A stretch of DNA of 64,000 nucleotides from a virus (IMGVR_UViG_3300019487_000017), one strand, 5' to 3'. Numbered from the stretch's first letter, positions 8,300 to 51,790 are shown. The notes: generated from the sequence alone by a model not told the origin. Made by a program: numbers and translations.

Positions 8300-8327
8300 T
8301 TGACTTTTTCTGAAAATAGACGATAAT
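8300..8327 (+). promoter_or_regulatory. Putative sigma70 promoter at the start of the GC-rich island
   Basis: TTGACT-N16-GATAAT. Confidence 0.5.
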
Positions 8328-8407
8328 TCACCTATCAATCGTATTCGCGATTGACTCGGCGACTGAGTGAGTCGTAGCCGCCCCCGCAAGGGGCGAAAGG
8401 AATTCAG

Positions 8408-8638
8408 ATGCAACACACGACTAAAAAATCCGCCATAGCCGCCGCGAAGGCCGACTATCTCGCCGGTAATTTCGGCGACATCTACAACGGCGACCACACC
8501 GGCCCCGAGACCAGCCTCATCCGCTATATTCCGACGCGGGACGGCGTCCTGAGACACGAGCGCAACGATAATGGCGGGGTCACTGGCATCAGGACTCCAC
8601 AGCGGATCATTTTCCGCAAATCCGAAGAGTGTCGCTGA
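8408..8638 (+). CDS. Small hypothetical protein on a high-GC island
   Basis: AAAGGA RBS; GC-rich codons unlike the flanks; flanked by GC-rich hairpins. Confidence 0.7.
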   Translation: MQHTTKKSAIAAAKADYLAGNFGDIYNGDHTGPETSLIRYIPTRDGVLRHERNDNGGVTGIRTPQRIIFRKSEECR

Positions 8639-9406
8639 TCCTTCGCCCGCCGTCGCGCCCCGCAAGGGCCGAGAAATCGACCCCGACGGCGGGCGGCTTT
8701 CGCGCCCGGCAGGCCGTGCGTTTACCCGACCGTTAAGCGGACTTGCCTTATATAAAAATGAAAAAGCATACTTTTACTTTGATAGAAATACTTATGCCCA
8801 ACCTGTAGCCAAATATCTTCTATATAAACTCTCTAAAAAACAACTTAAAGATAAAGAAAAACAACATGAAATGTTCTTGCGGTATGTAGGAAATAACTCA
8901 GACTATAAGCAAGGCAAATTGTCAAAGAAATTAAAAAGATACACAGACCCACTCTTTCCAACACAAATGTGGGGAAAATTACTCAATACACCTCCAAAAT
9001 TAATCAATAAACGTATTAAAAGAAAAAAGAAAATCGCCCGCAAAAAATACCTAAAAGGTCTACTCTATGGAACTATTACCATCATTACCCTATACACCGT
9101 ACTATATGTAATAAACATCTTATGAACTGCGAACTAACTACAAACAAAAACGATTACAATGTAATCACATCTATTGACCTCCCAATACCTCCAGCAATAG
9201 GAAGCACCATACGTATCATAAATCATGAATATGATAGCCTCTATCTAGTCAAAATGACAGAAATCGTCCATAGAACTATCTATCATTCAGAAACCAACAT
9301 CAAACTAGGATATGATACACAAGCTGTCATAGAAGTTATACTTATTAAAAAAGATCCCAATGAATAATGTAAACCACACGCAAAAGGTAATCAACTTTAA
9401 ATAAAT

Positions 9407-11732: not shown

Positions 11733-12728
11733 ATGGTTCGTGTTATTTCTTCAAAAGAATCGGGACAAGATGCTGAAGGAACAGCATCTAAAGAACATAT
11801 TTCATATAATCATTGGCGTACAGAGGCTGAGAAGCCTTTTAAAGATCGTAAGAAGGTTGTTGGTAAGCGTGGAGAGACTATAGTTCGTCGTTATCATTTT
11901 CGCTCTGACCAAATTGCGCAATTGAAGGCAGATGCTGCAGCTACAGGAGGTATTATAAACCCTCTAAAGAACCGTATTGGGGCATATTGGGCATCTGTAG
12001 AGGCATTAATTCTCCTGGGAATTAATGATTGGCATTCTCTTAAGAAGATTGTAGACAAGATGCAGGAAGTAATGTCTGCAATGCCAAAGAAGCGAAAAGT
12101 TAGTGGTAAGATAGCTGATACTGATGCTTGGTCGGATTTTATTTCTAAGCCCAGTCGTGATGGTTCTTCATCTGTAGCAGCTTATTTACGCAAGATTGAA
12201 CAGAATTTTCGTGTTCTCCAGCGTTTACCGCGTCCTAACAAAGAAGAATGCAATCCTTATGGGATTAAGTTAGCGCAGTTTGGTATGTGCATTGATATTG
12301 AATATCGCGTTGTTGAAGGCTGTGGAGATCCTTTGCCCTATTTTCGTTTAAATACGACTTGGACCCCTGATGATACTGGTTTACTTGTAAAGCCATTGTA
12401 CATCAATCCTAATAGTCGCCGTCGTCGTAAGGGGAAGCAGGCGGTAAATAAGGTTGAAACTGACGCAAACAAAGTTACTGATGATACAGAGGTTACGGAC
12501 GGAATGAATTTGGCTCAAGATACTGAGGATATGTCAGAAAACCGTATAGATTCTTCTGACGCATCTGAAACAACTGAGGTAAAGTCGGAAGAAATTGCTA
12601 CACAGGAGATTGCCGAGCAAATTTCTGACTACACAGATGTTGAGGATGATGCTGATGCGTCCAAGATGTTTATAGGGGATGCGTTGAACGATTTTGATAA
12701 GCAGCAAGAAGAGTTTGATTCGGAGTAA
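11733..12728 (+). CDS. Hypothetical protein with basic patch and long acidic tail
   Basis: 331-aa ORF, AGGAG RBS, followed by a terminator. Confidence 0.8.
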   Translation: MVRVISSKESGQDAEGTASKEHISYNHWRTEAEKPFKDRKKVVGKRGETIVRRYHFRSDQIAQLKADAAATGGIINPLKNRIGAYWASVEALILLGINDWHSLKKIVDKMQEVMSAMPKKRKVSGKIADTDAWSDFISKPSRDGSSSVAAYLRKIEQNFRVLQRLPRPNKEECNPYGIKLAQFGMCIDIEYRVVEGCGDPLPYFRLNTTWTPDDTGLLVKPLYINPNSRRRRKGKQAVNKVETDANKVTDDTEVTDGMNLAQDTEDMSENRIDSSDASETTEVKSEEIATQEIAEQISDYTDVEDDADASKMFIGDALNDFDKQQEEFDSE

Positions 12729-12782
12729 TTTTTATATCCCTATGGGATATAATTTTGACTCCTGAGATTAGTTAGTCAACAG

Positions 12783-12834
12783 GACGGTTACTTGTAGAAG
12801 GTACAACTTTCTATGAGTAACCGTTTTTTATTTT
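12783..12834 (+). terminator. Intrinsic terminator
   Basis: GACGGTTAC...GTAACCGTT followed by a T-tract. Confidence 0.7.
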
Positions 12835-13979: not shown

Positions 13980-14462
13980 ATGCATGACGAAATAGGCACA
14001 TTTTTTATTGTTTTACGTCCGCAGATATTTTACACACTAGAAAATATTTTGCTTCAAGTTACTATTTCTGATTTGATTACGAATATTCAGGGAGGTTTGA
14101 AGCTGGAAGATATTCTTGCTGTTTACCCTTTTAATAGGTTAGATGATTCTCGTCAGTATGCGCAGGGTGCGATTGATGCATTGGAGGAAGAATATAAGGG
14201 AGATAATAAGCGATACATATTAGTATCATCTGTTGATAATGAATTACATACAGATGAGGGTAATATATGGGATATGATTATTTTATTGAGGGAATATTTT
14301 CTTTCTGTAGTAAAGAGTGATGAGCATGGTATAATAAATGATTTTACGCAGTTTTTTAATTTATCAAATAAAGGGGATAAGTTGAATATTGCGGGAAGGT
14401 TATTGATTTGTTTGGGTGGAGAAGAAGTTTCTCCAGAGGAAGAGGGATTAAAAATAGGATAG
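13980..14462 (+). CDS. Hypothetical protein
   Basis: 160-aa ORF. Confidence 0.65.
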   Translation: MHDEIGTFFIVLRPQIFYTLENILLQVTISDLITNIQGGLKLEDILAVYPFNRLDDSRQYAQGAIDALEEEYKGDNKRYILVSSVDNELHTDEGNIWDMIILLREYFLSVVKSDEHGIINDFTQFFNLSNKGDKLNIAGRLLICLGGEEVSPEEEGLKIG

Positions 14463-14618
14463 ATGGAAGCACAGCGGTGTGGTGACATACCTACAGTTTC
14501 TGAAAGGCTTGGTTAGATAATAGCAGTACTATGAGCTTGCTAGCCCGCAAGGGTTAATATGACAGGCTCGCCCCCTGGGAGATTGGAGACTCAGGAATTG
14601 ACTTGAGGCTGTGTATCT
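14461..14618 (+). ncRNA. Candidate structured RNA upstream of the tRNA array
   Basis: GCACAGC(14469)/GCTGTGT(14608) closing stem, GAGCTTG/CAGGCTC helix and a TAGCCC-GCAA-GGGTTA tetraloop hairpin; no ORF. Confidence 0.45.
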
Positions 14619-14697
14619 TTTTTCTTTTTAAAAATTAAAGAAGGAAAAAGAGAAAATTCGATTGTATGTGAGTAAGAGGTTGAGTAAGGTAAACAAA

Positions 14698-14805
14698 ATG
14701 TTAGAAGTAAGGAACAACATAGTTTGCAAGACAGCTGCGACAAATAGAATGTTTGCAGTTATTTTTGCGTGGAATAAAACTATGGGGTTCCTTCCTTTAA
14801 GCTGA
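14698..14805 (+). CDS. Putative attenuator leader peptide MLEVRNNIVCKTAATNRMFAVIFAWNKTMGFLPLS
   Basis: 35 codons; its 3' end carries the antiterminator strand; codons match the downstream tRNAs. Confidence 0.7.
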   Translation: MLEVRNNIVCKTAATNRMFAVIFAWNKTMGFLPLS

Positions 14806-14870
14806 TAAGAATCAGCAAAACCTAAAAAAGGAAGTAAACCCCGAAGCCAAAAGGTTATCGGGGTTTTTTA
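14784..14870 (+). promoter_or_regulatory. Mutually exclusive antiterminator/terminator (attenuator) for the tRNA array
   Basis: GGGGTT-C-CTTCCTT (14784-14797) pairs with AAGGAAG-TA-AACCCC (14828-14842). This overlaps the terminator AAACCCCGA...TCGGGGTTTTTT (14836-14869). Confidence 0.75.
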
Positions 14871-14873
14871 TTT

Positions 14874-14945
14874 TCCAGGGTAGCTCAACGGTAGAGCGTT
14901 CGGCTGTTAACCGAATGGTTACAGGTTCGAATCCTGTCCCTGGAG
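14874..14945 (+). tRNA. tRNA-Asn(GTT)
   Basis: Cloverleaf; TTCGG-CTGTTAA-CCGAA. Confidence 0.95.
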
Positions 14946-14956
14946 CTGGGGAATAT

Positions 14957-15029
14957 GTGGATGTAGCTCAGTTGGTAGAGCGCCTGCCTGAAGAGCAGGG
15001 CGTCGTAGGTTCAAGTCCTATCATCCACA
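14957..15029 (+). tRNA. tRNA-Phe(GAA)
   Basis: Cloverleaf; CCTGC-CTGAAGA-GCAGG. Confidence 0.95.
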
Positions 15030-15233
15030 CTTATGCAGGTATTGGAAGAAGATTTTCGTGATAGATGTAAAGTTCTTCCAATAAAAGGTGTTTTTTATTG
15101 TTTAGGTATTAAGGTAGTTCGTTTAGGTAATAATAAGTGGCAGTCTGGTGATTGTAGGGGTAATTGGAAACAGGTTTATCAGGCTGTTATGTTGAAAATA
15201 AACGCTGTTCTTTGACAATTGAATATCATTTAT

Positions 15234-15308
15234 TCCAGGATAGTCATCAGGGTGATGGCGTTCGGCTGTTAACCGAAAATAAGGCTGGTTCGATCCCAGC
15301 TCCTGGAG
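15234..15308 (+). tRNA. tRNA-Asn(GTT), second copy
   Basis: TCCAGGA/TCCTGGA acceptor stem; TTCGG-CTGTTAA-CCGAA. Confidence 0.9.
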
Positions 15309-15309
15309 C

Positions 15310-15364
15310 TGACCTAATATAAATGGGCGTGAGCTGATTTCGGGTTCGACTCCCGTTCGGTCCA
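15310..15364 (+). pseudogene. Truncated tRNA-like element (T-arm and acceptor only)
   Basis: CGGG-TTCGACT-CCCG T-arm and GACC/GGTC ends; no D or anticodon arm. Confidence 0.45.
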
Positions 15365-15380
15365 TTTGATGAGATATAAT

Positions 15381-15461
15381 GTGGGCTGACCCAAGGTGAC
15401 GGGTTAAAGCGATGGTGAAGCACCGACAGGTGTAGTAGGGTTCGAATCCCACTGCGTCCAC
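15381..15461 (+). pseudogene. Atypical tRNA-like element, anticodon not assignable
   Basis: GTGGGC/GTCCAC ends; GGG-TTCGAAT-CCC T-arm. Confidence 0.45.
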
Positions 15462-15489
15462 TGAAGAACGCCTAAAATATATTGTAAAA

Positions 15490-15561
15490 GCCTCCGAAGC
15501 TTTAGCGGATGAGCAACTGGCTCTTAACCAGTGGAAGCCGGATCGTTACCGGACGGGGGCA
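15490..15561 (+). tRNA. tRNA-Lys(CTT), atypical T-loop
   Basis: ACTGG-CTCTTAA-CCAGT; T-loop ATCGTTA. Confidence 0.85.
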
Positions 15562-15613
15562 TAACTGACATGTGCTATAAAACCTTATATCTATAGATAT
15601 AGAGGTAAAGCAT

Positions 15614-16024
15614 ATGTTTGAATCTCATGTTAAAGGAGAATTAGCTCAATTGGAATTCCAAAAACGAGCATTAGAAAAAGGAATTATAGTTAGTCGTCCA
15701 ACAACAGAAAGCCGGTACGACTATATTATAGATGATAAGGGAGAACTATTACGGGCCCAGATAAAATATGCTGGTTCTACAACATCTAATAGTAATGGAT
15801 CAGTTTTAGTTAGATTAGAAAAAGAATGTCGAAGTAATGGGAAACGTAGGTGTTATTCTTCTGATGAAGTAGATGTATTATTTGTTTTTATACCGCAAAT
15901 AAATAAAATATGTCGTTTTGATACAATATTTTTTGTTGATAAATCTACATTAACTATTAGAATCGAAACGGCTAAAAATAGACAAACAAAGAATGTTTAT
16001 TTAGCTCAAGATTTTATATGGTAA
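15614..16024 (+). CDS. PD-(D/E)XK endonuclease (I-Ssp6803I-like homing type)
   Basis: KGELA, SRP, RYDYIID, RAQIK, Y...EVDVLFVF. Confidence 0.85.
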   Translation: MFESHVKGELAQLEFQKRALEKGIIVSRPTTESRYDYIIDDKGELLRAQIKYAGSTTSNSNGSVLVRLEKECRSNGKRRCYSSDEVDVLFVFIPQINKICRFDTIFFVDKSTLTIRIETAKNRQTKNVYLAQDFIW

Positions 16025-16030
16025 TATTGT

Positions 16031-16103
16031 GCCGGAGTAGCTCAGCTGGTAGAGCGCCGTATTTGTAATGCGGATGTCGTGGGTTCGATCCCCTCCTTCG
16101 GCT
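16031..16103 (+). tRNA. tRNA-Thr(TGT)
   Basis: Cloverleaf; CCGTA-TTTGTAA-TGCGG. Confidence 0.93.
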
Positions 16104-16546
16104 TTTAAAAATATGTTAGAAGATAAGACACTTAAAAATTTGCAAAATACATATGAAGAGCGTCAATGTCGTGTAGGTTCTGCTCCTGACTGGGAGTATG
16201 GTATAGTTGAGAAAGTTTATCAGGCAAGAAATAGAATTGATGGACTTTATAAATGTAAAGTAATAATGGATAATAATGTTATAAAGTACATAGACATTAA
16301 TGAGATTCATATTTTTTGAGGAATAAAAATGGTTAATCAATTGCCAATTAAGGTTCAGAAGTTGATTATTGGTTCAAGTGATTTGATGACTATAGCCTAT
16401 GGTAATAAGGTTTATTTTTATTTATCTAAGGAAAACAAACAGACAAGAACAAAGATTGAAGCGATAATGAAGACTCATGTACCTGATCGGGAGTATGAGA
16501 TTAAAGTAGTTGGTAAGATTGTTGCAAGTCCTGCAACATAGCATAT

Positions 16547-16617
16547 AGGTTGTTCGTATAGTGGCATTACCTTCGTCTCCAAAACGAAAGACAGGGGTTC
16601 GATTCCTCTACAACCTG
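16547..16617 (+). tRNA. tRNA-Trp(CCA)
   Basis: AGGTTGT/ACAACCT; TTCGT-CTCCAAA-ACGAA. Confidence 0.9.
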
Positions 16618-16630
16618 TTTCCTCCAGTAT

Positions 16631-16703
16631 AGAACGGTAGCTCAATTGGCAGAGCAGTTCCCCGATTAGGAACTTGTTGTAGGTTCAACTCCTATCCGTT
16701 CTA
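16631..16703 (+). tRNA. tRNA-Ile(GAT)-like with a non-canonical loop (C33, U37)
   Basis: GTTCC-CCGATTA-GGAAC; otherwise a normal cloverleaf. Confidence 0.8.
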
Positions 16704-16720
16704 CTTGAAAGGTAAGTCTT

Positions 16721-17026
16721 ATGAAAAAGATTGCTGGACCCCATACATCGTATGAGGCGAGACGATTAGATACTCCATCTGACCCAGAAAATTCTGGATG
16801 GCAATTGGTTGTTTTTGAGGCTGATTATAACAAAGAAGGGGGTAGAGAAGTATCTTATGATGCTTGTTTAGAAGCTGCTGTATTGGCAACTGATGGGAAG
16901 ATGACAAATGTAGTTATTGTGAAGGTAGAGGTTGAGTACTGTAAACCTTCAAAACAGGAAATTAGGGATTTGATAAAGAAACATAATGCAGACCCTTTTA
17001 CTAATCCTGTTAACATGGCAGAGTGA
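16721..17026 (+). CDS. Hypothetical protein within the tRNA array
   Basis: 101-aa ORF; 3' end overlaps tRNA(CAT). Confidence 0.6.
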   Translation: MKKIAGPHTSYEARRLDTPSDPENSGWQLVVFEADYNKEGGREVSYDACLEAAVLATDGKMTNVVIVKVEVEYCKPSKQEIRDLIKKHNADPFTNPVNMAE

Positions 17027-17089
17027 GTATTGGTTTCTCGGATACGTTTCATAAGCGTGTTTATGTCGGTTCGATTCCGACCTCTGCTA
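17017..17089 (+). tRNA. tRNA(CAT), Met or Ile2
   Basis: GGCAGAG/CTCTGCT; loop TTCATAA. Confidence 0.8.
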
Positions 17090-17405
17090 CTTTATTTGGA
17101 GAAAAAATATGCCTTGTAGTGGTCCATCAATTCCATACGATCAGGCTAAAGAAGCTTATGAGGATGTTTATAAGTATATGAAGGAAAAATATAAGCTTTT
17201 TAGTTCTGATGAGGTTTTAGATAAAATTTCTCCTGCTGGATTCAGGAAGAATTGTTTAGAACAACGAAATAAGGCTGAGGAAAAGTTGAGAGAGGCTGTT
17301 TTAGATTTGTTTACTTGTGATGCGTTTGAGTCATGGTAATTTTTTAGAAAGGAGATTAATCATGCGTTATAAACGTGTTAGCGTTGATGAAGATGATAAA
17401 CGCTA

Positions 17406-17478
17406 GATCCCGAAACCTTTAGTGGATGAGGCTCAGACTTTTAATCTGATTAAGTCGGATCGTTACCGAACGGGATCA
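17406..17478 (+). tRNA. tRNA-Lys(TTT), atypical T-loop
   Basis: TCAGA-CTTTTAA-TCTGA; T-loop ATCGTTA. Confidence 0.85.
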
Positions 17479-17486
17479 TTTTTTAA

Positions 17487-17559
17487 GGGTTCGTAACTCA
17501 ATTGGTAGAGTAACAGCCTTTTAAGCTGTGAGTTGCGGGTTCGAGTCCCGCCGGACCCA
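17487..17559 (+). tRNA. tRNA-Lys(TTT), canonical
   Basis: ACAGC-CTTTTAA-GCTGT. Confidence 0.95.
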
Positions 17560-18269
17560 TTATGAAAATTACTATTACAGCGAGAGAGATTTTGAACAAA
17601 GGTTCTTGGGACAAATTCTGTCATAAGTTTGGAATTAATGAATGGGCAATGAATGAAGGTCGTATGGATCCATCTGAAGAGTTTACAATGACTCTTGAGG
17701 ATGCTAGAGAGATAGGATTAATCAATGATTTATCTGGACCATCCAATTTTCGCAGCAATTAATTCCAGTAACGCAATAGCCTCTTCTCCAGAAGGACCAT
17801 TTATTTCTAACGATAAGGAATCGTTAGAGGGTGAGTTAGAATCGTGGAAATATGATGGTTGTACAGTTGAAGAGATTGTAATTACAAGGAAAAAAGATGC
17901 CAGCCATTCCATTGCGATTGATTAAGGCTGAAGACATCAGTTGCCTTAGTTTAATTTCTAAGGCGTATCCTTATACGAGTGGGCTGATTATTGCCCTCAG
18001 TAATGAAAAAGGAGAGTGTGTTAGATATTGGGATGGGGATATGTTTATGCTCTTTGGAAGTGAAACAAGAGCAGAGGATCCAAAAACATTAAGTTCAAAG
18101 ATGATACCTTTTCAGCTTAAGAAAGCAAAAGAGTACGCATCACAGATTATTGTTGATGAGAAAATAGTGGATTTAGCTTTTTGGCTTCATCCTGAGTTTG
18201 ATTATCAGGCGATAGATAAATATAAGAATTTAAGATATCTATTCCCTGGTTGTCCGAGACAGTAAATAT

Positions 18270-18342
18270 GGGCCTGTAGTGTAATTGGGAACACACTTGG
18301 TTTGCAACCAGGGATTGAGGATTCAAATTCCTCCAGTGTCCA
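18270..18342 (+). tRNA. tRNA-Ala(TGC) with a 1-nt bulge in the acceptor stem
   Basis: CTTGG-TTTGCAA-CCAGG; G3:U70 retained. Confidence 0.75.
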
Positions 18343-18723
18343 CTTTTGAGAGGATATAATGGCTGTCATAGATCCAAATATTTCTCCTATAGATTTAAAA
18401 ATCATGCAAAATCTTCATAAGGTTGTTCGTTTGCGAGAAGAGTGCCTGAAAGAGCAAACGAATCATTATGGAAACAAAGAGAAAATGTTAGAGTATCATA
18501 ATGTATGTGAACAATTGACATCGGAGCATGTAAAGTTATATACTTCTTTGTCTCCGTTGGGCAAGGATCAGTATGATTTATGGAAGGCATATGAATTACC
18601 TTTGCCTGAATTGAATAGGAAAGGTGTTCAGCGTCCTAAGTCAGTATATCAGCGGTTACATGAGACATTGTTGTCTGGTATACCGTTTGAGTGAAAGTGA
18701 GCGCTAGTAGCTCAGAGTATTTC

Positions 18724-18797
18724 GCGCCCGTAGCTTAGCCTGGTAAAGCACTATCCTGATAAGATAGGGATCACAGGTTCAAATCCTGTTGGGCGCA
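18724..18797 (+). tRNA. tRNA-Ile(GAT)
   Basis: CTATC-CTGATAA-GATAG. Confidence 0.93.
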
Positions 18798-18836
18798 TTA
18801 AAGGATAAAAGTGAATAGACTTCTGCTATGTAATAG

Positions 18837-19268
18837 TTGAGTTCTATTATAAATACTAAAGCAAAAGGCGATGTTTCGACGGCGGTTATTTTTGCTGCCT
18901 TAGTAAAAAACGGTTTTACGGTCTTAACTCCTTGGGGAGATAAGAATCGTTATGATTTAGTTGTAGATGATAACGGAAAATTTATTCGCATTCAGTGTAA
19001 AACTGGATGCTTAAATAATAAATGCATAAATTTTAGAACTTATTCATTGACAACGAAAAACGGCAAATCAGTAAAATCAAATTATACAGCGGAAGAAATT
19101 GATCTATTTATGGTTTATTGTCCAGAGATAGACAAAATCTATGTGATAAATCAATTTGAAGTACCAAATAATATTTGTATTCTACGGGTGTCATCGCCGA
19201 AGAATAACCAAAAGACGAATATCAAGATGGCATGTGACTTTGAATTTAATGGGCTTCTGTGTATATGA
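18837..19268 (+). CDS. PD-(D/E)XK endonuclease (I-Ssp6803I-like homing type)
   Basis: KGDVS, PWGDKNRYDLVVD, RIQCKT, Y...EIDLFMVYCP. Confidence 0.88.
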   Translation: MSSIINTKAKGDVSTAVIFAALVKNGFTVLTPWGDKNRYDLVVDDNGKFIRIQCKTGCLNNKCINFRTYSLTTKNGKSVKSNYTAEEIDLFMVYCPEIDKIYVINQFEVPNNICILRVSSPKNNQKTNIKMACDFEFNGLLCI

Positions 19269-19308
19269 CTAAAAATAAAAAATATGAGTGGTGAATTTTA
19301 AGTAATTC

Positions 19309-19381
19309 GGGGCTATAGCTCAATTGGGAGAGCAGCACCTTTGCAAGGTGAAGATTGCAGGTTCGATTCCTGTTAGCTCCA
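19309..19381 (+). tRNA. tRNA-Ala(TGC)
   Basis: GGGGCTA/TAGCTCC; loop TTTGCAA. Confidence 0.93.
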
Positions 19382-20291
19382 TTCTTCTCCAGAAGTTACT
19401 ATCCTTCCATAAGACAGTTTAATCTTATAGAACAATAAGGAAAATATATGCATAAGTTTATGATTCATTTTCAGAGCGCGGCTTATTCAAATGAATTATA
19501 TGATGTTTTTGGAAGAAACATATATTCGCTTGAGAAAGCAATTAAAACAGCGGAAGATATGTATGGGAGTAAGGGTTGGGAAGTATATAACGGAATTGAA
19601 AGCGAAAACAGGTTTAGGTAATGAACAATAAAACGATGATAATTTCAGATCAACAACTAATTGATAAGTTGGCAAATAAACATCAGGTTAACTTGCTAGG
19701 TGCGAATATTATTTGTACAGATGAGAAACCAATTGGAAATGGTATTTTTGGTTGTGCAAGATGCGAACTAATTAATTATTTCCAATTTCAAGAAGAAAGT
19801 GGAGATAATGCATCACCCTAATATTTTCGCAGCACTTTTTCAAGAGATAATTACACAATTATCTAAGGAAGAACAGAATACACTATATAACTTGTGTAAT
19901 TCAAATAATGTGACAGAAACCGAGTTGAACGTATTGCGAGGAAAGATTCAGGTTTTAGCCAATGGAACAACACTCACAATACAAGCAAGAAACTTTTTGT
20001 CTTTTTTATTGAATGGACTTCCTAAGACTCCTGAGAAGAAGTTGAGCATAGATATTGACATAAACCAACGTCCAATATAAGGTTGGTATTAAAATGGAAG
20101 AAGCAGAGGTTCTGAGTTAAGGTTGATATTGTTAGTACTCCTGATGATAAACCTCATTTGCAAGTTTCTTTGTGTACAGAGGGATATCCTTATCTTGTAC
20201 TGATAGAGTCTGATTCTATACTGTTGGATTTAATACAAAACGCCAAGATTATTATGTAGACGTTAAGGGATCGTAGCTCAACTGGATTAAC

Positions 20292-20363
20292 GCGAGCGTA
20301 GCTCAAAGGCGGAGCAAGGAACTCATAATTCCGGGGTTGTAGGTTCGAATCCTACCGTTCGCA
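20292..20363 (+). tRNA. tRNA(CAT), Met or Ile2
   Basis: GCGAGCG/CGTTCGC; loop CTCATAA. Confidence 0.88.
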
Positions 20364-20405
20364 TTAGAAACGACGATATTTAAATTCTTTATTATCTTCA
20401 ACTTC

Positions 20406-20481
20406 AGCATGACAATTTAAACAATGGTAGCATTCCCCCGCGTAGGCTGGGGGAGGTAAGAGTTCAAATCTCTTAATGTTT
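20406..20481 (+). pseudogene. Degenerate tRNA-like element
   Basis: AAGAG-TTCAAAT-CTCTT T-arm, CCCCC/GGGGG stem with an oversized loop, weak acceptor stem. Confidence 0.4.
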
Positions 20482-20493
20482 TTGTGGTTATAT

Positions 20494-20565
20494 GTCCCTG
20501 TAGGCTAACGGATAAACCCACTGCCTTCTAAGCAGTTTTTGCAGGTTCGAATCCTGCCAGGGACA
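20494..20565 (+). tRNA. tRNA-Arg(TCT)
   Basis: ACTGC-CTTCTAA-GCAGT. Confidence 0.95.
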
Positions 20566-20840
20566 CTTGAATAATTTTTCCCTCCTATAAGAAATTCATC
20601 TTTAAATTCAAAAATTCTCTTAAAAACTCTTGATTTCTATAAATATTGTGTTTTTAAGGGTTTAAGATACTAATCTTGTAGCTATAAAGATAGAAATGCG
20701 AAGATAGAAGATTAGAATTGTTGATTATCTCCAGAATTAAGATATCATTCTGTAGTAACTTCGTTGAAGCCAATCATATTCATTCGAATGTTCGAATGAG
20801 ATTAGGCTAAAAGGTATCCATACAATCAAAGGAAACTGTT

Positions 20841-21503
20841 ATGGATCGCAAAGGTACTGCAGTTCTCAATGTTGATGCTGTTGTCGCGGAATTCGCAAAT
20901 CGTTCAAAGCGTTTGCGAGAAATCGTGAAGCAGCAAGGTCTTTTGGCGAAGCAGCGGGCTCAAATCGAACAGCAGCAAAATCAGTTGTCGAATGAAGTTC
21001 AACGGCTGATGGGTACGGCTGAAGAGAATTCGACTATTGCTCCGCGTCGTCGCGGTCGTAAGCCTGGTCGCAAGCCCAAGGCTGAAAAGACTGCAAAGAA
21101 CGCTCGTAAGGCGAATGGTAACGGTGAAAAGACCGTTGCAAAGCGGAATGGTCGCGGTCGTAAGCCTTCCGGTGAAAGTCTTCGCGACGTTCTGTTGACG
21201 GTTCTCCCGTCTGCCTCTGAAGACCCAATTTCGAAGGATGAGATTGTTACTCGTCTGACGAAGAAGGGTTACAAGTCTACGGCGAAGGATCCGAAGGTGG
21301 TTATTGGTCAGGCGCTCGGCAAGCATCGGGATTTCTCGGTTGTTGAACGCGGCAAGTGGCGTTTGAGTGCCACTGGAGTCAAGAATCGGGATAAGATGGT
21401 TGCTCCTGCTACCACGGCTCCGGTTGCTGGCCCGACCCCTGCTCCTGTCGAGGCAGCTGCTGAAACTGCCTCTGCGGAAACGGCTGCAGCGGCTGCTGAG
21501 TAA
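20841..21503 (+). CDS. Basic nucleoid-associated-like protein (coiled coil, RGRKP repeats, probable winged helix, Ala-rich tail)
   Basis: RRGRKPGRKP, GRGRKP, C-terminal F-V-RGKWRL; own promoter-like sequence (TTGATT-N16-TATCAT at 20721) and a downstream hairpin. Confidence 0.65.
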   Translation: MDRKGTAVLNVDAVVAEFANRSKRLREIVKQQGLLAKQRAQIEQQQNQLSNEVQRLMGTAEENSTIAPRRRGRKPGRKPKAEKTAKNARKANGNGEKTVAKRNGRGRKPSGESLRDVLLTVLPSASEDPISKDEIVTRLTKKGYKSTAKDPKVVIGQALGKHRDFSVVERGKWRLSATGVKNRDKMVAPATTAPVAGPTPAPVEAAAETASAETAAAAAE

Positions 21504-21528
21504 GCAGTAAAGTTTAGATGTAGAAATA

Positions 21529-21569
21529 ATAAGTACAGCTATCTTCAATTGTGAGATAGCTGTACTTAT
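21529..21569 (+). terminator. Long hairpin / terminator
   Basis: TAAGTACAGCTATCT...AGATAGCTGTACTTA. Confidence 0.6.
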
Positions 21570-21577
21570 ATTCTTAC

Positions 21578-21650
21578 GCTTGCGTAGCCTAACGGATAAG
21601 GCATCACTTTCCTAAAGTGAGATATGGAGGTTCGAATCCTCCCGTGAGCA
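21578..21650 (+). tRNA. tRNA-Arg(CCT)
   Basis: TCACT-TTCCTAA-AGTGA. Confidence 0.93.
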
Positions 21651-21686
21651 TAATTTTACGATATTAGATTATTAACGGAGATATTT

Positions 21687-21824
21687 ATGTCATATATTTA
21701 TTCTGGTCCAGAACAAGAAGAAGATGATGAAGACTTTGAAGAAGACGAAGATGATTTTGATTGGGATGAGGATGACGACGATTGGGAAGATGACGAAGAT
21801 GATGACGAATTTGATGATGAGTAA
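21687..21824 (+). CDS. Very acidic 45-aa peptide
   Basis: GGAG RBS; MSYIYSGPEQEEDDEDFEEDEDD...DDE. Confidence 0.6.
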   Translation: MSYIYSGPEQEEDDEDFEEDEDDFDWDEDDDDWEDDEDDDEFDDE

Positions 21825-21832
21825 GTAAAAAC

Positions 21833-21936
21833 GCACCCCTAGCTCAATTGGTAGAGCAGCGGGCTTATACCCCGCCCCCGGAAACGGGAGTTCCCAGATT
21901 AGGAAACGGTTGTAGGTTCGAGTCCTACGGGGTGTA
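21833..21936 (+). tRNA. 104-nt tRNA-Ile-like gene with two anticodon-like arms (TAT and GAT)
   Basis: 7-bp acceptor, normal D and T arms; GCGGG-CTTATAC-CCCGC, CCCG-GAAA-CGGG, TTCC-CAGATTA-GGAA. Confidence 0.8.
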
Positions 21937-22401
21937 TTAAAAGGGATAAATATCTAATTTAAAAAGGAGATGTTTATGTCGGAATATTATTTTGCAGTTT
22001 TGCCACAGTTCCCTGGAACCCCAATTAAAGGTGGGAAAAGGGCTGCGAAGCAGCGTGATAAGATTGCGAAAAATATTGATCCCAAGGGGGATATACATAT
22101 TATTTTGATTCTGCTGAAAAACGTTGGCGTGGTTGGGGTTATTGTCTAAATCTTGGACATCCATTTGATAGAGCAACTGCTAAGGCTATTGAAGAAGCGT
22201 GGGAAGCTGCGGGTATATAATAATGAATAAAAAGGTAGTCTTGACAATTATTTGTAGTTTGGTAGGTATAGGACTACTTTTATTTCTAATATACATTTTA
22301 TTTGGGCAAAGTATATTGGGAATTGCTGCTTGTATCCTTGTAGGAATGTTTTTAGCGTTTGTATTGTATGTTTTGGCTAGTGGCATGGGTGAATAACTTT
22401 T

Positions 22402-22473
22402 GGGGATATAGATTAACGGGAAATCGTCTCAATGGCATTGAGAAAAGTAAGGGTTCGACTCCCTTTATCTCCA
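22402..22473 (+). tRNA. tRNA-Ala(GGC)
   Basis: TCTCA-ATGGCAT-TGAGA; G3:U70. Confidence 0.9.
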
Positions 22474-22834
22474 CTGAAAGAATATGTAGTAAGAATATAT
22501 GCCTGCAAATATAGATTTTGCATTAATAGAACGTTCACTTACACTATTTTCCACTGGACAATTTGATTCCCGTCAGGATGCATTAAAGGCTGCAATTGAA
22601 GAAAGAAAAAAAGAACAGCGTAAAAAGCAAGATAAAGAAATAGAAAAAAGACAGCAAGAAATTGATGATTGGGCTTAACACATCTAGAAGACTCTCCGGT
22701 ACTTAGAATTATTAACATAGCCTTTGAATAAGAGGCTATGTTATGAATAAAAAAGAAACAAAGACATTAGTACTCCCGTCTGGTTTATCATTAGATGAAA
22801 AAAGAGTGCTTTAAAGCTTCTTAGTTCACTTCCC

Positions 22835-28271: not shown

Positions 28272-29654
28272 ATGGCGGTCAAAGTAAAAGGTGATAAAGT
28301 TAAGGAACCAACAAAGGCGCAACTAGATACCGCAGTTGCAAAAGAACGCCTTATTTGTGTAGATGTTGATGATAACAACTGTAAGTTTTGGCACGGATTT
28401 GCCTTAGCAAATGGTGACGGTTTCTGCGAATGGGGAAGAGTTGATAAAACGCGACAACATGAATATTACAATTTTGGCAATGTAAGTGATGCTCAAAATT
28501 GGCTTGAAAGTAAAACCCAGGAAAAATTGAATAAGCGTGGTAAGGCTTCTTACACTCGACAGAAGACAATCGATAATACTGGAACTGTCAATCGTACTTC
28601 TGTTGGTGGCGGTTCTGTTCGCTCTTCTGATTTAAAGAATATTGCAGCGCAACAGATTAAGGGTGATAGCGAGACAACAAAGCTTGTAACTTGGCTTGCA
28701 GAAGTCAATGTACATCAAATTACTAAGAATACTCAAATTACATATAACGTTCAAACTGGATCATTCAGTACGCCATTAGGTTTAGTTACTCCTGATGGTA
28801 TTACTGAGGCTCGTGATATTCTGAATGGCATTTGCGATTATGTTCAGAATAGGGATTGGAATAACGCAAAATATAAGAAACTATTAAGTGATTATTTGCG
28901 TATTATTCCGCAGAACGTAGGTATGGTTCGAGGTTGGCATGAGACTATTTTTGCTCCTGCCGATTCCTTGCAAAAGCAGAATGATATTCTTGATTCGTTG
29001 TCGGCGTCTTTACAGGCACCGTCTACAGGAAAAAAGTCATCTGCTGGAAACGTAACGGAAAGCGTTTTCAACGTTTCTCTCGAAACCGTTTCAGATCCAG
29101 CAATTATTTCTCGCATTCGAGCAAAATACAACAGCGAAAAGGGAAGTCATTACGACGTAAAGGACTTCGATGTAAGGAAAGTTTGGACTGTTCATATTAC
29201 AACAGTCAGAAGTGCTTTCCAAGGTGACGGTATTAAGGTAGGCGGTATGATGCAACTTTGGCATGGAACAAAGGCATCTAATGTTTTGTCTATCTTAAAG
29301 GGAGGATTGGTTATTCCTCCTGCCAGTGCATCGCACGTTTGTGGACGTATGTTTGGTAATGGATTGTATTTCTCTGACCAATCGACTAAGAGCATTCGTT
29401 ATGCTACAGGCGCTTGGACAGGCGGTGGGAATACAGAACGAGTATTTATGTTTATTGCTGATGTTGCAATGGGCAAATACTATACGCCGCAAGGTTATCA
29501 GAGTGGTTCATTCCGCGTACCGTCTGGCTATGACTCCTGTTTTGCTAAAGGCGGTAAGTCTGGGGTACAGAATAACGAAATGATTGTTTATCGCGTATCT
29601 CAGGCAGATTTGACTTATTTGGTTGAATTTGGACGTAACAAGACTGGATGGTAA
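28272..29654 (+). CDS. WGR-domain PARP-family ADP-ribosyltransferase
   Basis: EWGRV (WGR), helical middle domain, LWHGT, SILKGGL, GRMFGNGLYF, KS-RY, NNEMIVY (H-Y-E triad). Confidence 0.92.
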   Translation: MAVKVKGDKVKEPTKAQLDTAVAKERLICVDVDDNNCKFWHGFALANGDGFCEWGRVDKTRQHEYYNFGNVSDAQNWLESKTQEKLNKRGKASYTRQKTIDNTGTVNRTSVGGGSVRSSDLKNIAAQQIKGDSETTKLVTWLAEVNVHQITKNTQITYNVQTGSFSTPLGLVTPDGITEARDILNGICDYVQNRDWNNAKYKKLLSDYLRIIPQNVGMVRGWHETIFAPADSLQKQNDILDSLSASLQAPSTGKKSSAGNVTESVFNVSLETVSDPAIISRIRAKYNSEKGSHYDVKDFDVRKVWTVHITTVRSAFQGDGIKVGGMMQLWHGTKASNVLSILKGGLVIPPASASHVCGRMFGNGLYFSDQSTKSIRYATGAWTGGGNTERVFMFIADVAMGKYYTPQGYQSGSFRVPSGYDSCFAKGGKSGVQNNEMIVYRVSQADLTYLVEFGRNKTGW

Positions 29655-39118: not shown

Positions 39119-39877
39119 ATGCGTAAGAGTAAGGGTTTTTCACTTGTAGAATTGCTTGTTGTGATGGGAATCATCTCATTGCTTATTTCCATCCTCCTGC
39201 CCAGTATTTCTCGATCACGAGAATCAGCACGATCCGTTAAGTGCCTGAGTAACCTGCGACAAATTGGACAGGCAACTCAGATGTACTTGCATGAAAATAA
39301 GGGTAGTTTCTTCCTTCGAGCGTTGAATGATGGTCCCAATCCTGATGATAATTATGCAACACTATTCAGGTTTGTTGGGTCTCCAGGTGAAAATCCTTAT
39401 AATGGTAACGCAAACCCTTATAAGTTCGGGGGTAACAAACGATATCTTAACCAGTATTTGAATACCAGCGATACTAACGATCAGGCTGTTTGGATTTGTC
39501 CTACTGACCCTGGTTTGTATAAGTTTACTGGTACATCATATGGTGCCAATCTTTTTGTCAAGAAGACTGCCACTGAACCTGATGTTAAAGGTCTTGCCTT
39601 AGATGATTTGCAGTCTATTAAAGTGACACAAATTAAGAACTCTTCGTCGTTTGTAGTTGCTGCTGAACATGGCGCTAATCAGCTTGCTTGGCTTAATGGT
39701 GGTAGTACGAATGAGCTGGGTAAGATTTCTGGGGTTCAGGTATTAACTCCCGCTGCTATGTTTTGGCACTCTAAGAGTCGTACATGGAATGTGCTTTTTG
39801 CAGATGGTCATTGTGGTGCTGTCGATATTAAAGCAAGCACTTTGTCAACATCTGAATATACTTATAACCGAGAATAA
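39119..39877 (+). CDS. Prepilin-type N-terminal cleavage/methylation protein, DUF1559-type with an H-X(n)-DG C-terminal motif
   Basis: KGFSLVELLVVMGIISLLISILLPS...RESAR-VKC-SNLRQIG, WICP-D, SYG-N, H...NVLFADGH. Confidence 0.92.
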   Translation: MRKSKGFSLVELLVVMGIISLLISILLPSISRSRESARSVKCLSNLRQIGQATQMYLHENKGSFFLRALNDGPNPDDNYATLFRFVGSPGENPYNGNANPYKFGGNKRYLNQYLNTSDTNDQAVWICPTDPGLYKFTGTSYGANLFVKKTATEPDVKGLALDDLQSIKVTQIKNSSSFVVAAEHGANQLAWLNGGSTNELGKISGVQVLTPAAMFWHSKSRTWNVLFADGHCGAVDIKASTLSTSEYTYNRE

Positions 39878-49482: not shown

Positions 49483-49565
49483 GTCCCAGTGGCGGAACGG
49501 CAGACGCTTCGGACTTAAAATCCGATGATCGAAAGATCGTGAGGGTTCGATTCCCTCCTGGGGCA
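49483..49565 (+). tRNA. tRNA-Leu(TAA)
   Basis: TCGGA-CTTAAAA-TCCGA; variable arm GATC-GAAA-GATC. Confidence 0.95.
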
Positions 49566-51416: not shown

Positions 51417-51576
51417 GCCCCTGTAGCTCAGCGGACTAGAGCGTTCACAAGCTTCAGATATGCTTTTTTGTAGTTGGAAGCGCTTCTTGCTACAAAATAG
51501 ATAGTTTCTAGGGCTATCTAAAATAGTGTTAATGAATCTAAGTGAAAGGTCGTTGGTTCGAATCCTTCCAGGGGCT
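51417..51576 (+). tRNA. tRNA-Arg(TCT)-like gene interrupted by a ~85-nt insertion in the anticodon loop
   Basis: GCCCCTG/CAGGGGC acceptor, D-arm with A20, TTCAC...TCTAA-GTGAA, T-loop TTCGAAT. Confidence 0.7.
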
Positions 51577-51587
51577 TTTTGATATAC

Positions 51588-51762
51588 GGGTGGTTGGTGA
51601 GCCGAAAGGTTCGCTGCAAGGCTTCTGAAAAGTTCTCAAAACGACTGTAGAACTATTAAGTCTCCAGGATTAGAATCGACTACGAAAGTAGAGACGCCTA
51701 ATATTTGAAAGACAATAGGATGTAACAGAGACGCTTGATTACAAAGTAAGAGCCAACCGCCC
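51588..51762 (+). ncRNA. Candidate structured RNA
   Basis: GGGTGGTTGG/CCAACCGCCC closing helix; two GAAA tetraloop hairpins; AGTTCT/AGAACT. Confidence 0.55.
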
Positions 51763-51790
51763 AAACGTACAACAAAGAAAGGTTTCTACA

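Follow-up and report, generated by a model that had tools for sequence, protein, structure and literature searches.

What controls a long array of transfer RNA (tRNA) genes that begins only a few nucleotides (nt) past a predicted terminator? The question is raised by a locus in a 64,000-nt stretch of the viral sequence IMGVR_UViG_3300019487_000017 (hereafter the window, the whole stretch that was analysed, with positions counted from its first letter), which is part of a 233,620-base contig. A short open reading frame (ORF), called here the leader, lies just upstream of the terminator, and the first gene of the array, a tRNA-Asn gene, begins at 14874, 4 nt past it. An earlier note on this DNA had read the arrangement as an attenuator in which stalling in the leader turns the array on, completed translation turns it off, and the control codons are matched to the array. 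That reading is supported by two relatives, by the geometry of the predicted switch, by two control sets and by cross-matching of leaders with arrays, and it stands as a prediction: with a probability of roughly 0.8, the leader region 14698-14869 would act as a ribosome-dependent transcription attenuator controlling the downstream tRNA array. The codon-matched leader itself is a real, conserved feature.

Codon match between the leader and its own array

The leader encodes the peptide MLEVRNNIVCKTAATNRMFAVIFAWNKTMGFLPLS, for which no Pfam match was found. The counts given in the earlier note, 35 codons at 14698-14805 and 24/35 residues that are N, K, T, A, R, M, F, I or W, the amino acids covered by the array, were reproduced. 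So was its reading that the ORF-end segment 14784-14797 is complementary to 14828-14842 on the terminator side and that the terminator (14836-14869) ends about 4 nt before the first tRNA. It had also drawn attention to the codons AGG (codon 5), AGA (codon 17) and ATA (Ile codon 8). These are present, but each is weak when taken singly, the background in the genes of the window being 37% AGR among Arg codons and 23% ATA among Ile codons.

The codon zones used for the statistics were set by structure, and in the window leader the zone comprises codons 2-26. Here 19/25 codons can be read by tRNAs of the array against a background of 41.5% (binomial 0.0005), a level that was also reached by 16/9,745 windows of equal length from the window's own genes and by 2/5,000 dinucleotide shuffles. 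The leader lies above both of these nulls; the earlier note had made its codon claim depend on an enrichment greater than in shuffled or random short ORFs. Codons 2-26 cover 12/13 anticodon types of the array, as does 1/9,745 gene windows, and codons 2-27 cover 13/13, as do 0/9,676. Enrichment was seen in the ORF frame only: the other two frames gave 9 and 5 of 25 codons in the window leader, and 4 and 3 of 23 and 5 and 3 of 22 in the leaders of the two relatives described next.

Relatives were sought with a profile of the 331-amino-acid (aa) gene at 11733, that is, with a neighbouring protein and not with the leader. The profile found six metagenome loci and one genome locus. Two of the seven (L010 and L013) extend to tRNAs; the other five (L007-L009, L011 and L012) end before any tRNA. 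It can be seen that L010 and L013 carry ORFs of 36 and 34 codons containing A-I-A-N-F-A-W, followed by an antiterminator and a terminator just before the tRNAs, and that all three diverged genomes retain the frame of the ORF, its start and stop position and its ribosome-binding box. The array of L013 covers Asn, Lys, Ile, Ala, Phe, Trp, Arg(CCT) and Met, and that of L010 is seen as far as Asn, an Ala-like gene and Lys, where the sequence ends. N, K, I, A, F and W are the amino acids common to the two fully seen arrays (window and L013). They account for 19/23 zone codons in L010 (0/1,037 windows; 0/5,000 shuffles) and for 18/22 in L013 (0/11,690 windows; 0/5,000 shuffles), and among the 38,760 possible sets this one ranks 1 and 3 in the L010 and L013 leaders, respectively. 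As these two are closely related, they count as about one test.

The window array adds Thr and Arg(TCT), and the window leader adds three Thr and two AGR codons; the L013 leader has neither. Between L010 and L013 the matched tract shows 6 substitutions, 5 of which stay inside the amino-acid set though they are chemically radical.

A simple possibility is that the match arises by chance, in that AT-rich DNA would yield N, K, I and F codons and terminators with G/C runs would find upstream partners anyway. It is true that the nine amino acids of the array make up 41.5% of the window's codons and that this set ranks only 304 of 167,960 in the window leader; moreover, for 39/112 control terminators an upstream partner of some kind is predicted at P>0.5. 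Chance is nevertheless rejected by the composition-matched nulls, by the two out-of-sample relatives, and by the control hexamer scan and the permutation test presented below, and we consider it hardly credible.

Predicted switching in the leader RNA

Folding predicts for the leader RNA a complete attenuator set of mutually exclusive helices, 1:2 (anti-antiterminator), 2:3 (antiterminator) and 3:4 (terminator), with the coordinates collected in Table 1. In the predicted folds the region 2 strand has two alternative partners, region 1 or 14827-14842. The earlier note was right on the antiterminator and the terminator but had overlooked the hairpin spanning the ORF, which sequesters the antiterminator strand; this hairpin folds with z -6.21, a value reached by 0/200 shuffles, and the stretch 14770-14875 with z -3.72. 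When L010 and L013 are folded at full length without translation, a helix equivalent to 1:2 appears there as well. A simple terminator scanner misses 14836-14869 because of its bulged stem. Among known RNA families, an Rfam BTnc005 match at the leader was rejected, since its 22.1 bits lie far below the cut-off of 174.8 and the score rests on the terminator. No T-box riboswitch was found: only tRNA families reach the Rfam gathering score in the window, and T-box is absent among the 22 Rfam matches at E <=10 in 14300-15500.

The effect of a ribosome was examined with a masking model in which the ribosome is assumed to cover the RNA to 12 nt from the first A-site base. In nascent RNA ending before the terminator 3' arm, the antiterminator of the window formed with P 0.93-1.0 when the ribosome was at codons 2-25 and 0.73 at codon 26, and with P 0 when there was no ribosome or when it stood at codon 27 or beyond. 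In this model a stall at a control codon leaves region 2 free and a ribosome at the stop codon covers it, which in the window holds for nascent RNA and not for the full-length equilibrium. The boundary is alike in the window, L010 and L013: the antiterminator is kept up to F-A-W-(N/I) and lost at the next codon, which is approximately where the array-matched codons stop in all three leaders. Codons 2-26 are thus the predicted stall-sensing zone, ending at the conserved F-A-W-N. The six core antiterminator pairs hold in 18/18 cells, with one two-sided change.

From these elements we infer translation, switching and read-through as follows. The leader would be translated while it is being transcribed. 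First, with no ribosome, region 1 would pair with region 2, the terminator would form and the array would be off. Secondly, a ribosome slowed within codons 2-26 would cover region 1 and leave region 2 free, and region 2 would capture the 5' arm of the terminator before the 3' arm is made, so that read-through turns the array on. Thirdly, a ribosome that reaches the stop codon would cover region 2, and the terminator would form in front of tRNA-Asn and turn the array off. The released tRNAs would relieve the stall, and the feedback on tRNA supply would be self-limiting because its product is the very tRNA whose shortage caused the stall.

Alternatively, the ORF may not be translated, and the hairpins may form a protein-controlled or constitutive RNA element (a leaky terminator, a processing signal or a small RNA), with the tRNAs expressed by read-through or from internal promoters. 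Such an element is consistent with the very stable hairpin of the ORF region, with a terminator favoured at equilibrium, and with a window leader that has no clear promoter upstream and possible internal promoters downstream. It would, however, leave unexplained why three diverged genomes have held on to the frame, start, stop position and ribosome-binding box, why the enrichment is confined to the ORF frame and why the leader match tracks each array. It seems improbable, therefore, that the ORF serves only as an untranslated RNA.

Leaders and tRNA blocks in other viral contigs

Viral contigs were scanned with a pattern of structure only, an antiterminator hexamer plus a terminator, which holds no codon or tRNA information and matched at least 120 loci (about 160 estimated); a control pattern with a non-complementary hexamer matched 113 loci. 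Only loci with enough flank entered the counts. Among the matches listed, a same-strand tRNA lay within 300 nt at 16/111 loci versus 1/110 in the control (by clusters 8/58 versus 1/50, p 0.027), and a tRNA lay within 550 nt at 15/70 loci versus 0/76 (by clusters 9/42 versus 0/40, p 0.0015). The single control locus with tRNAs, L242, carries a short ORF upstream of the terminator and is possibly a further leader of this kind. The exact antiterminator-terminator pattern was found at 6 viral loci and an F-A-W-coded pattern at 2, with 0 tRNAs beside either. With one mismatch the F-A-W-coded pattern occurred in 12/401 genomes of the phylum of G001, near the number for the reversed-pattern control, and 0/11 matches outside G001 had tRNAs.

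Wider regions of five records were then taken, and 17 leader-array pairs were defined by one fixed rule, which picked an upstream ATG for L013. Sixteen pairs were scored; G406 was left out of the permutation test, as its array covers all 20 amino acids. The mean z of leaders for their own array was 2.35 versus 0.01 off the diagonal, a difference reached by 0/200,000 permutations, also with the window and L013 removed, and the own array ranked first for 9/16 leaders. Two genomes contain several blocks each. G402 has three (Pro/His/Gln; Asp/Glu/Val/Leu/Ala/Trp; and Lys/Tyr, which is cut off). In G403 a leader was detected before three blocks (Glu/Met/Arg/Gly; Asn/Pro/Gln; Phe/Asp/Met/Ile/Ser). 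Each of these leaders is rich in the residues of its own block, and the swap matrices indicate that leaders fit their own block even within one genome.

Structurally, a strong antiterminator (P>0.9, at least 6 kcal/mol) was predicted for 6/7 leaders versus 0/112 control terminators, and 4 of the 7 had been found without any antiterminator criterion. In two G403 leaders the antiterminator partner strand lies at or just after the stop codon, not inside the ORF. The structure-only pattern was also present in 5/301 genomes of the phylum of G001. One match there, the 14-kb contig G021:C47, stands outside the permutation test and has two tRNA blocks with matching leaders: a leader with the stretch L-L-H-S-R-Y-S-L-P-P stands in front of genes for Pro, Ser, Tyr, Leu, Arg and His, and one with K-Y-P-N-I-G-R-V-G-T-M-T in front of genes for Thr, Met, Ile, Gly, Val, Lys and Arg, beyond which come Glu, Asp, Cys and Gln genes. 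Of the other three new matches in the phylum, two are without tRNAs and L276 has two tRNAs on opposite strands.

At L041, L053, L062, L103, L105 and G406, broad arrays are preceded by leaders of 34-55 codons in which most amino acids occur. Array breadth correlates with leader diversity (rho 0.77, n=17), and these leaders are apparently 'whole-code' versions of the same switch. The same correlation could be claimed for a sensor of general translation stress or of nascent-peptide arrest, responding to antibiotics or through the F-A-W motif, for which the codon match would be incidental. F-A-W is indeed the same in all three homologues and occupies the last codons at which a stall is permissive, and the trn array of Anabaena is induced by general translational stress (PMC10272220). 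No common peptide motif was seen among the unrelated leaders, yet each fits its own block, also within G402 and G403, and the radical substitutions between L010 and L013 remain inside the codon set. A peptide- or stress-specific sensor thus has only a small likelihood.

Several observations weigh against the attenuator proposed for the window. First, the match is incomplete. Six zone codons of the window leader (three Val, Leu, Glu and Cys) match no array tRNA; the L013 leader covers 9/11 anticodon types of its array (43/11,690 windows), Arg(CCT) and Met having no internal leader codon; and four broad arrays have leaders without enrichment (z 0.3 for L041, 0.4 for L103, -0.5 for L105 and -0.6 for L062). 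The pairs are also not independent of descent, and several arrays are incomplete, ending at the flank or at the contig end. Secondly, of the two things that the earlier note had proposed to compare in related leaders, codon/anticodon matching was found in L010 and L013, but covariation in the three sequences was not significant (137/500 shuffles). Thirdly, the folding check that it had proposed on 14770-14875 gave no equilibrium switch: the terminator forms both in the free RNA (-32.5) and in the masked RNA (-28.6), and a forced antiterminator gave -28.4. In full-length RNA with the 5' part masked and region 2 free, the values were -34.3 for the terminator versus -28.0 for the antiterminator. 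Since the terminator wins at full-length equilibrium, the switch would depend on the order of folding during transcription. In L010 and L013, the antiterminator is predicted to form in nascent RNA without a ribosome, and for this reason the off state without a ribosome is firm for the window only.

Fourthly, promoter scans found no promoter of at least 9/12 between 13977 and the window leader. L010 and L013 have an 11/12 sigma-70 site and an AAGGA box directly 5' of the leader, and apart from the promoter at the window leader, all features of a ribosome-dependent attenuator that can be tested from sequence are present or predicted. Transcription of the distal tRNAs (those past 18.5 or 20.7 kb) may start at internal promoters and so be uncoupled from the leader. 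Finally, the likely host is a planctomycete (see below), and there is a disputed report that transcription and translation are kept spatially apart in such a cell (PMC5394234).

The array, its surroundings and its possible role

Table 1. Positions in the window of the leader, of its predicted RNA elements, and of the array with associated sites
Feature	Position	Strand	Remarks
Shine-Dalgarno-like hexamer	14685..14690	+	7 nt 5' of leader ATG; seen in the sequence
Leader ORF	14698..14805	+	35 codons then TGA; homologues L010 8131-8241, L013 14145-14249
Long hairpin over ORF	14704..14798	+	region 1 (14704-14725) pairs with region 2 side (14777-14798); predicted anti-antiterminator/pause helix
Region 2	14784..14798	+	predicted 5' antiterminator strand, within last ORF codons
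Small hairpin	14801..14816	+	spans stop codon, inside antiterminator loop; hairpin at same place in L010, L013
Region 3	14827..14842	+	3' antiterminator strand, overlaps terminator 5' arm
Intrinsic terminator (3:4), predicted	14836..14869	+	six-U tract, about -19 kcal/mol
tRNA array	14874..22474	+	18 genes, 13 anticodon types, 9 amino acids
boxA-like motif	15207..15218	+	sole + strand match in 64-kb window
Internal sigma-70 promoter candidate	18515..18544	+	11/12 match, within small ORF
Two weak promoter-like sites	20691..20748	+	5' of 220-aa gene; last three tRNAs (CCT, TAT, GGC) downstream

The array (Asn, Phe, Lys, Thr, Trp, Ile, Met, Ala and Arg) comprises 16 genes called by ARAGORN and two by Rfam only (17017, CAT; 21833, TAT), interspersed with small ORFs and two PD-(D/E)XK endonuclease genes. 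Several isoacceptors are duplicated with differing anticodon stems, and 9/13 anticodon types read A-starting codons. In G402 one block reads C-starting codons throughout (Pro, His, Gln) and a second one mostly G-starting codons (Asp, Glu, Val, Ala); tRNA blocks may thus be sorted by anticodon position 36. Two genes are odd. That at 21833-21936 does carry the TAT anticodon given to it by the earlier note, plus two extra hairpins in the variable region, and the GAT gene at 16631-16704 has C33 and U37 in its anticodon loop. A permuted tmRNA called by ARAGORN at 15273-15822 is doubted, as Rfam gives fragments of only 13.2 and 9.7 bits versus 47. The tRNA-like fragments underlying this call (15322-15366 and 15381-15462) have a T-loop and no normal anticodon arm, and are possibly degenerate tRNAs or decoys.

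The boxA-like motif, for which consensus forms are given in PMC13753749, occurs once each in L010 (8760) and L013 (15385), so that each array has one near its start; it fits a single long transcript and likely shields that untranslated RNA, though the search pattern was shaped on these same sites and makes weak evidence. L013 has a 9/12 site before a gene placed like the 220-aa gene of the window. Taken together, promoter-like sites do not outnumber those in shuffles (32 vs 44.1).

Directly 5' of the window leader, 14462-14615 is a G+C-rich, multibranch RNA-like fold (z -2.88) with end-to-end closing pairs, followed by a U-rich run; it has no Rfam family and could be an independent small RNA or else belong to the leader transcript as its 5' part. 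Around the relatives' leaders, a conserved hairpin-rich non-tRNA stretch lies between the first tRNAs (L010 about 8390-8500, L013 about 15060-15165), absent from the window and without an Rfam match. It is followed by tRNA-like genes with long or branched anticodon arms and an Ala-like loop (L010 8501-8586; L013 15167-15251, and also 20224-20354). The first tRNA-Asn of L013 (14303-14965) seems broken, its 5' half after the terminator giving way to a 197-aa ORF that is HNH-like by eye. L010 6705-7911, as well as the ends of L009 and L012, holds a tandem of about six ORFs of 63-74 aa that begin and end alike and are rich in Ser, Arg, Gly, Met and Trp, and at about 12210-12300 in L013 a second antiterminator/terminator-like arrangement stands before a protein gene, without a tRNA.

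Elsewhere in the window, a G+C-rich, hairpin-rich island in AT-rich DNA (about 8300-8745), located after a sigma-70-like site and near a change in base composition, is a possible origin or small RNA. A strong terminator-like hairpin at 12782-12826, without a predicted upstream partner, lies 20 nt 5' of a RadA/KaiC-like ATPase gene. An isolated tRNA-like gene (51417-51576) carries about 85 inserted nt in its anticodon region, and the ends of the stretch behind it (about 51585-51770) look complementary. By eye, no leader was seen before this gene or before the tRNA-Leu at 49483.

The genes of the window are mostly small and co-oriented. PHROG families were matched by 21/36 window proteins tested, with 0 virion proteins among the matches, and from these matches the contig is likely of phage origin. 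No viral contig relative was found via neighbour proteins, and comparison with cultured phages gave no match of note for the window leader and none for two other leaders, and so provided no ready model phage. A WGR-PARP gene is present at 28272-29654, with one also on the L013 contig, and a prepilin-type DUF1559 gene at 39119-39877. DUF1559 is associated with Planctomycetota, and a contig syntenic with the window sits in a Planctomycetaceae bin; these two findings point to Planctomycetota as the host phylum. A cyanobacterial host for the window is improbable.

Leader-peptide attenuators control operons of amino-acid metabolism in bacteria, the thr, ilvGMEDA and pheST systems of E. coli included. 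The ribosome-dependent type has a set of anti-antiterminator, antiterminator and terminator, as in the trp and his leaders and in the multivalent ilvBNC leader of Corynebacterium glutamicum (PMC11857589). The window leader resembles them in its short ORF of control codons and, as predicted, in its mutually exclusive helices, in read-through upon stalling and in a stop codon that places the ribosome over region 2. Unlike them, it would control tRNAs and not biosynthetic enzymes or synthetases, so that the output is the sensed molecule; it covers 9 amino acids and 13 anticodon types where they cover 1-3 amino acids; and it lies in a likely phage genome and is known here from its sequence. The mechanism of the trp operon is thus known, and its use on tRNA genes appears to be new: no account of a leader-peptide attenuator on tRNA genes was found among the papers listed by full-text searches that reached few subscription journals, as judged from titles and abstract openings.

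In T-box riboswitches, the status of a tRNA selects terminator or antiterminator through direct binding of the tRNA to a specifier loop. The window leader is alike in that tRNA status would set this choice, and unlike in that sensing is predicted to run through a translated ORF with many codons. The nearest functional precedent is the trn operon (L-array) of Anabaena PCC 7120, likewise a long tRNA array with endonuclease genes, carried on a mobile replicon and silent until translation is stressed (PMC10272220). It is repressed by TrcR, a ribbon-helix-helix repressor (PMC8421152), and the main text of that paper contains 0 occurrences of 'attenuat', 'leader' and 'terminator'. Repression there answers general stress, whereas control of the window array is predicted to be cis-acting and codon-specific.

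What shortage would the leader sense? It can only report slow decoding, whatever the cause. Extra tRNA does not cure amino-acid starvation, and therefore the logic would fit a shortage of functional tRNA. One such shortage is the destruction of tRNAs by host defence. Phage tRNAs counter host tRNA depletion and evade anticodon nucleases (PMC10264068), and the tRNAs of T5 counter the AriB nuclease of PARIS, whose three reported targets, Lys(UUU), Thr(UGU) and Asn(GUU), each have a counterpart in the array (PMC12409363). Like these counter-defence tRNAs, the Lys, Thr and Asn tRNAs of the array could refill a depleted pool; unlike the accounts in the parts of the two papers available, which are without conditional codon-sensing control of transcription, the window is predicted to have it. 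A special case of the attenuator, then, is that it evolved specifically for counter-defence, as a switch directed at host nucleases or modifiers by which these tRNAs are destroyed. The preference for A-starting codons and the duplicated isoacceptors with different anticodon stems are in line with it. Compared by eye with the motif of AriB, the anticodon stems of the array are mixed: one of the two Lys(UUU) genes and the Thr(UGU) gene retain U36-A-A-U, which AriB reportedly needs (PMC12409363). Furthermore, the leader cannot distinguish cleavage from general tRNA decay or high demand, and the separate blocks of G402, G403 and G021 jointly cover most amino acids. Because separate blocks in other phages together cover most of the genetic code, a general feedback on tRNA supply fits at least as well, and the counter-defence origin is a possibility that we hold tentatively, with the balance somewhat against it.

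The same tentative weight attaches to a wider proposal, that large phages may use modular, codon-indexed feedback in which each tRNA block is switched by its own leader when the matching tRNAs of the host are destroyed or disabled. If so, the leader would be a phage-encoded sensor of tRNA-targeting immunity, and leader codon lists would read out the tRNAs attacked in an uncultured host, here mostly those for A-starting codons together with Ala, Phe and Trp.

Debate over the reason for tRNA genes in phages goes back more than 50 years (PMC10264068). If the switch predicted for the window is true, phage tRNA genes would be an on-demand supplement, and codon compensation, general tRNA decay and targeted host nucleases would become testable rivals. 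Attenuation of the trp type would then include outputs that are non-coding and take in about nine amino acids together, and the leaders would provide a sequence rule predicting which tRNAs run short in uncultured phage-host pairs.

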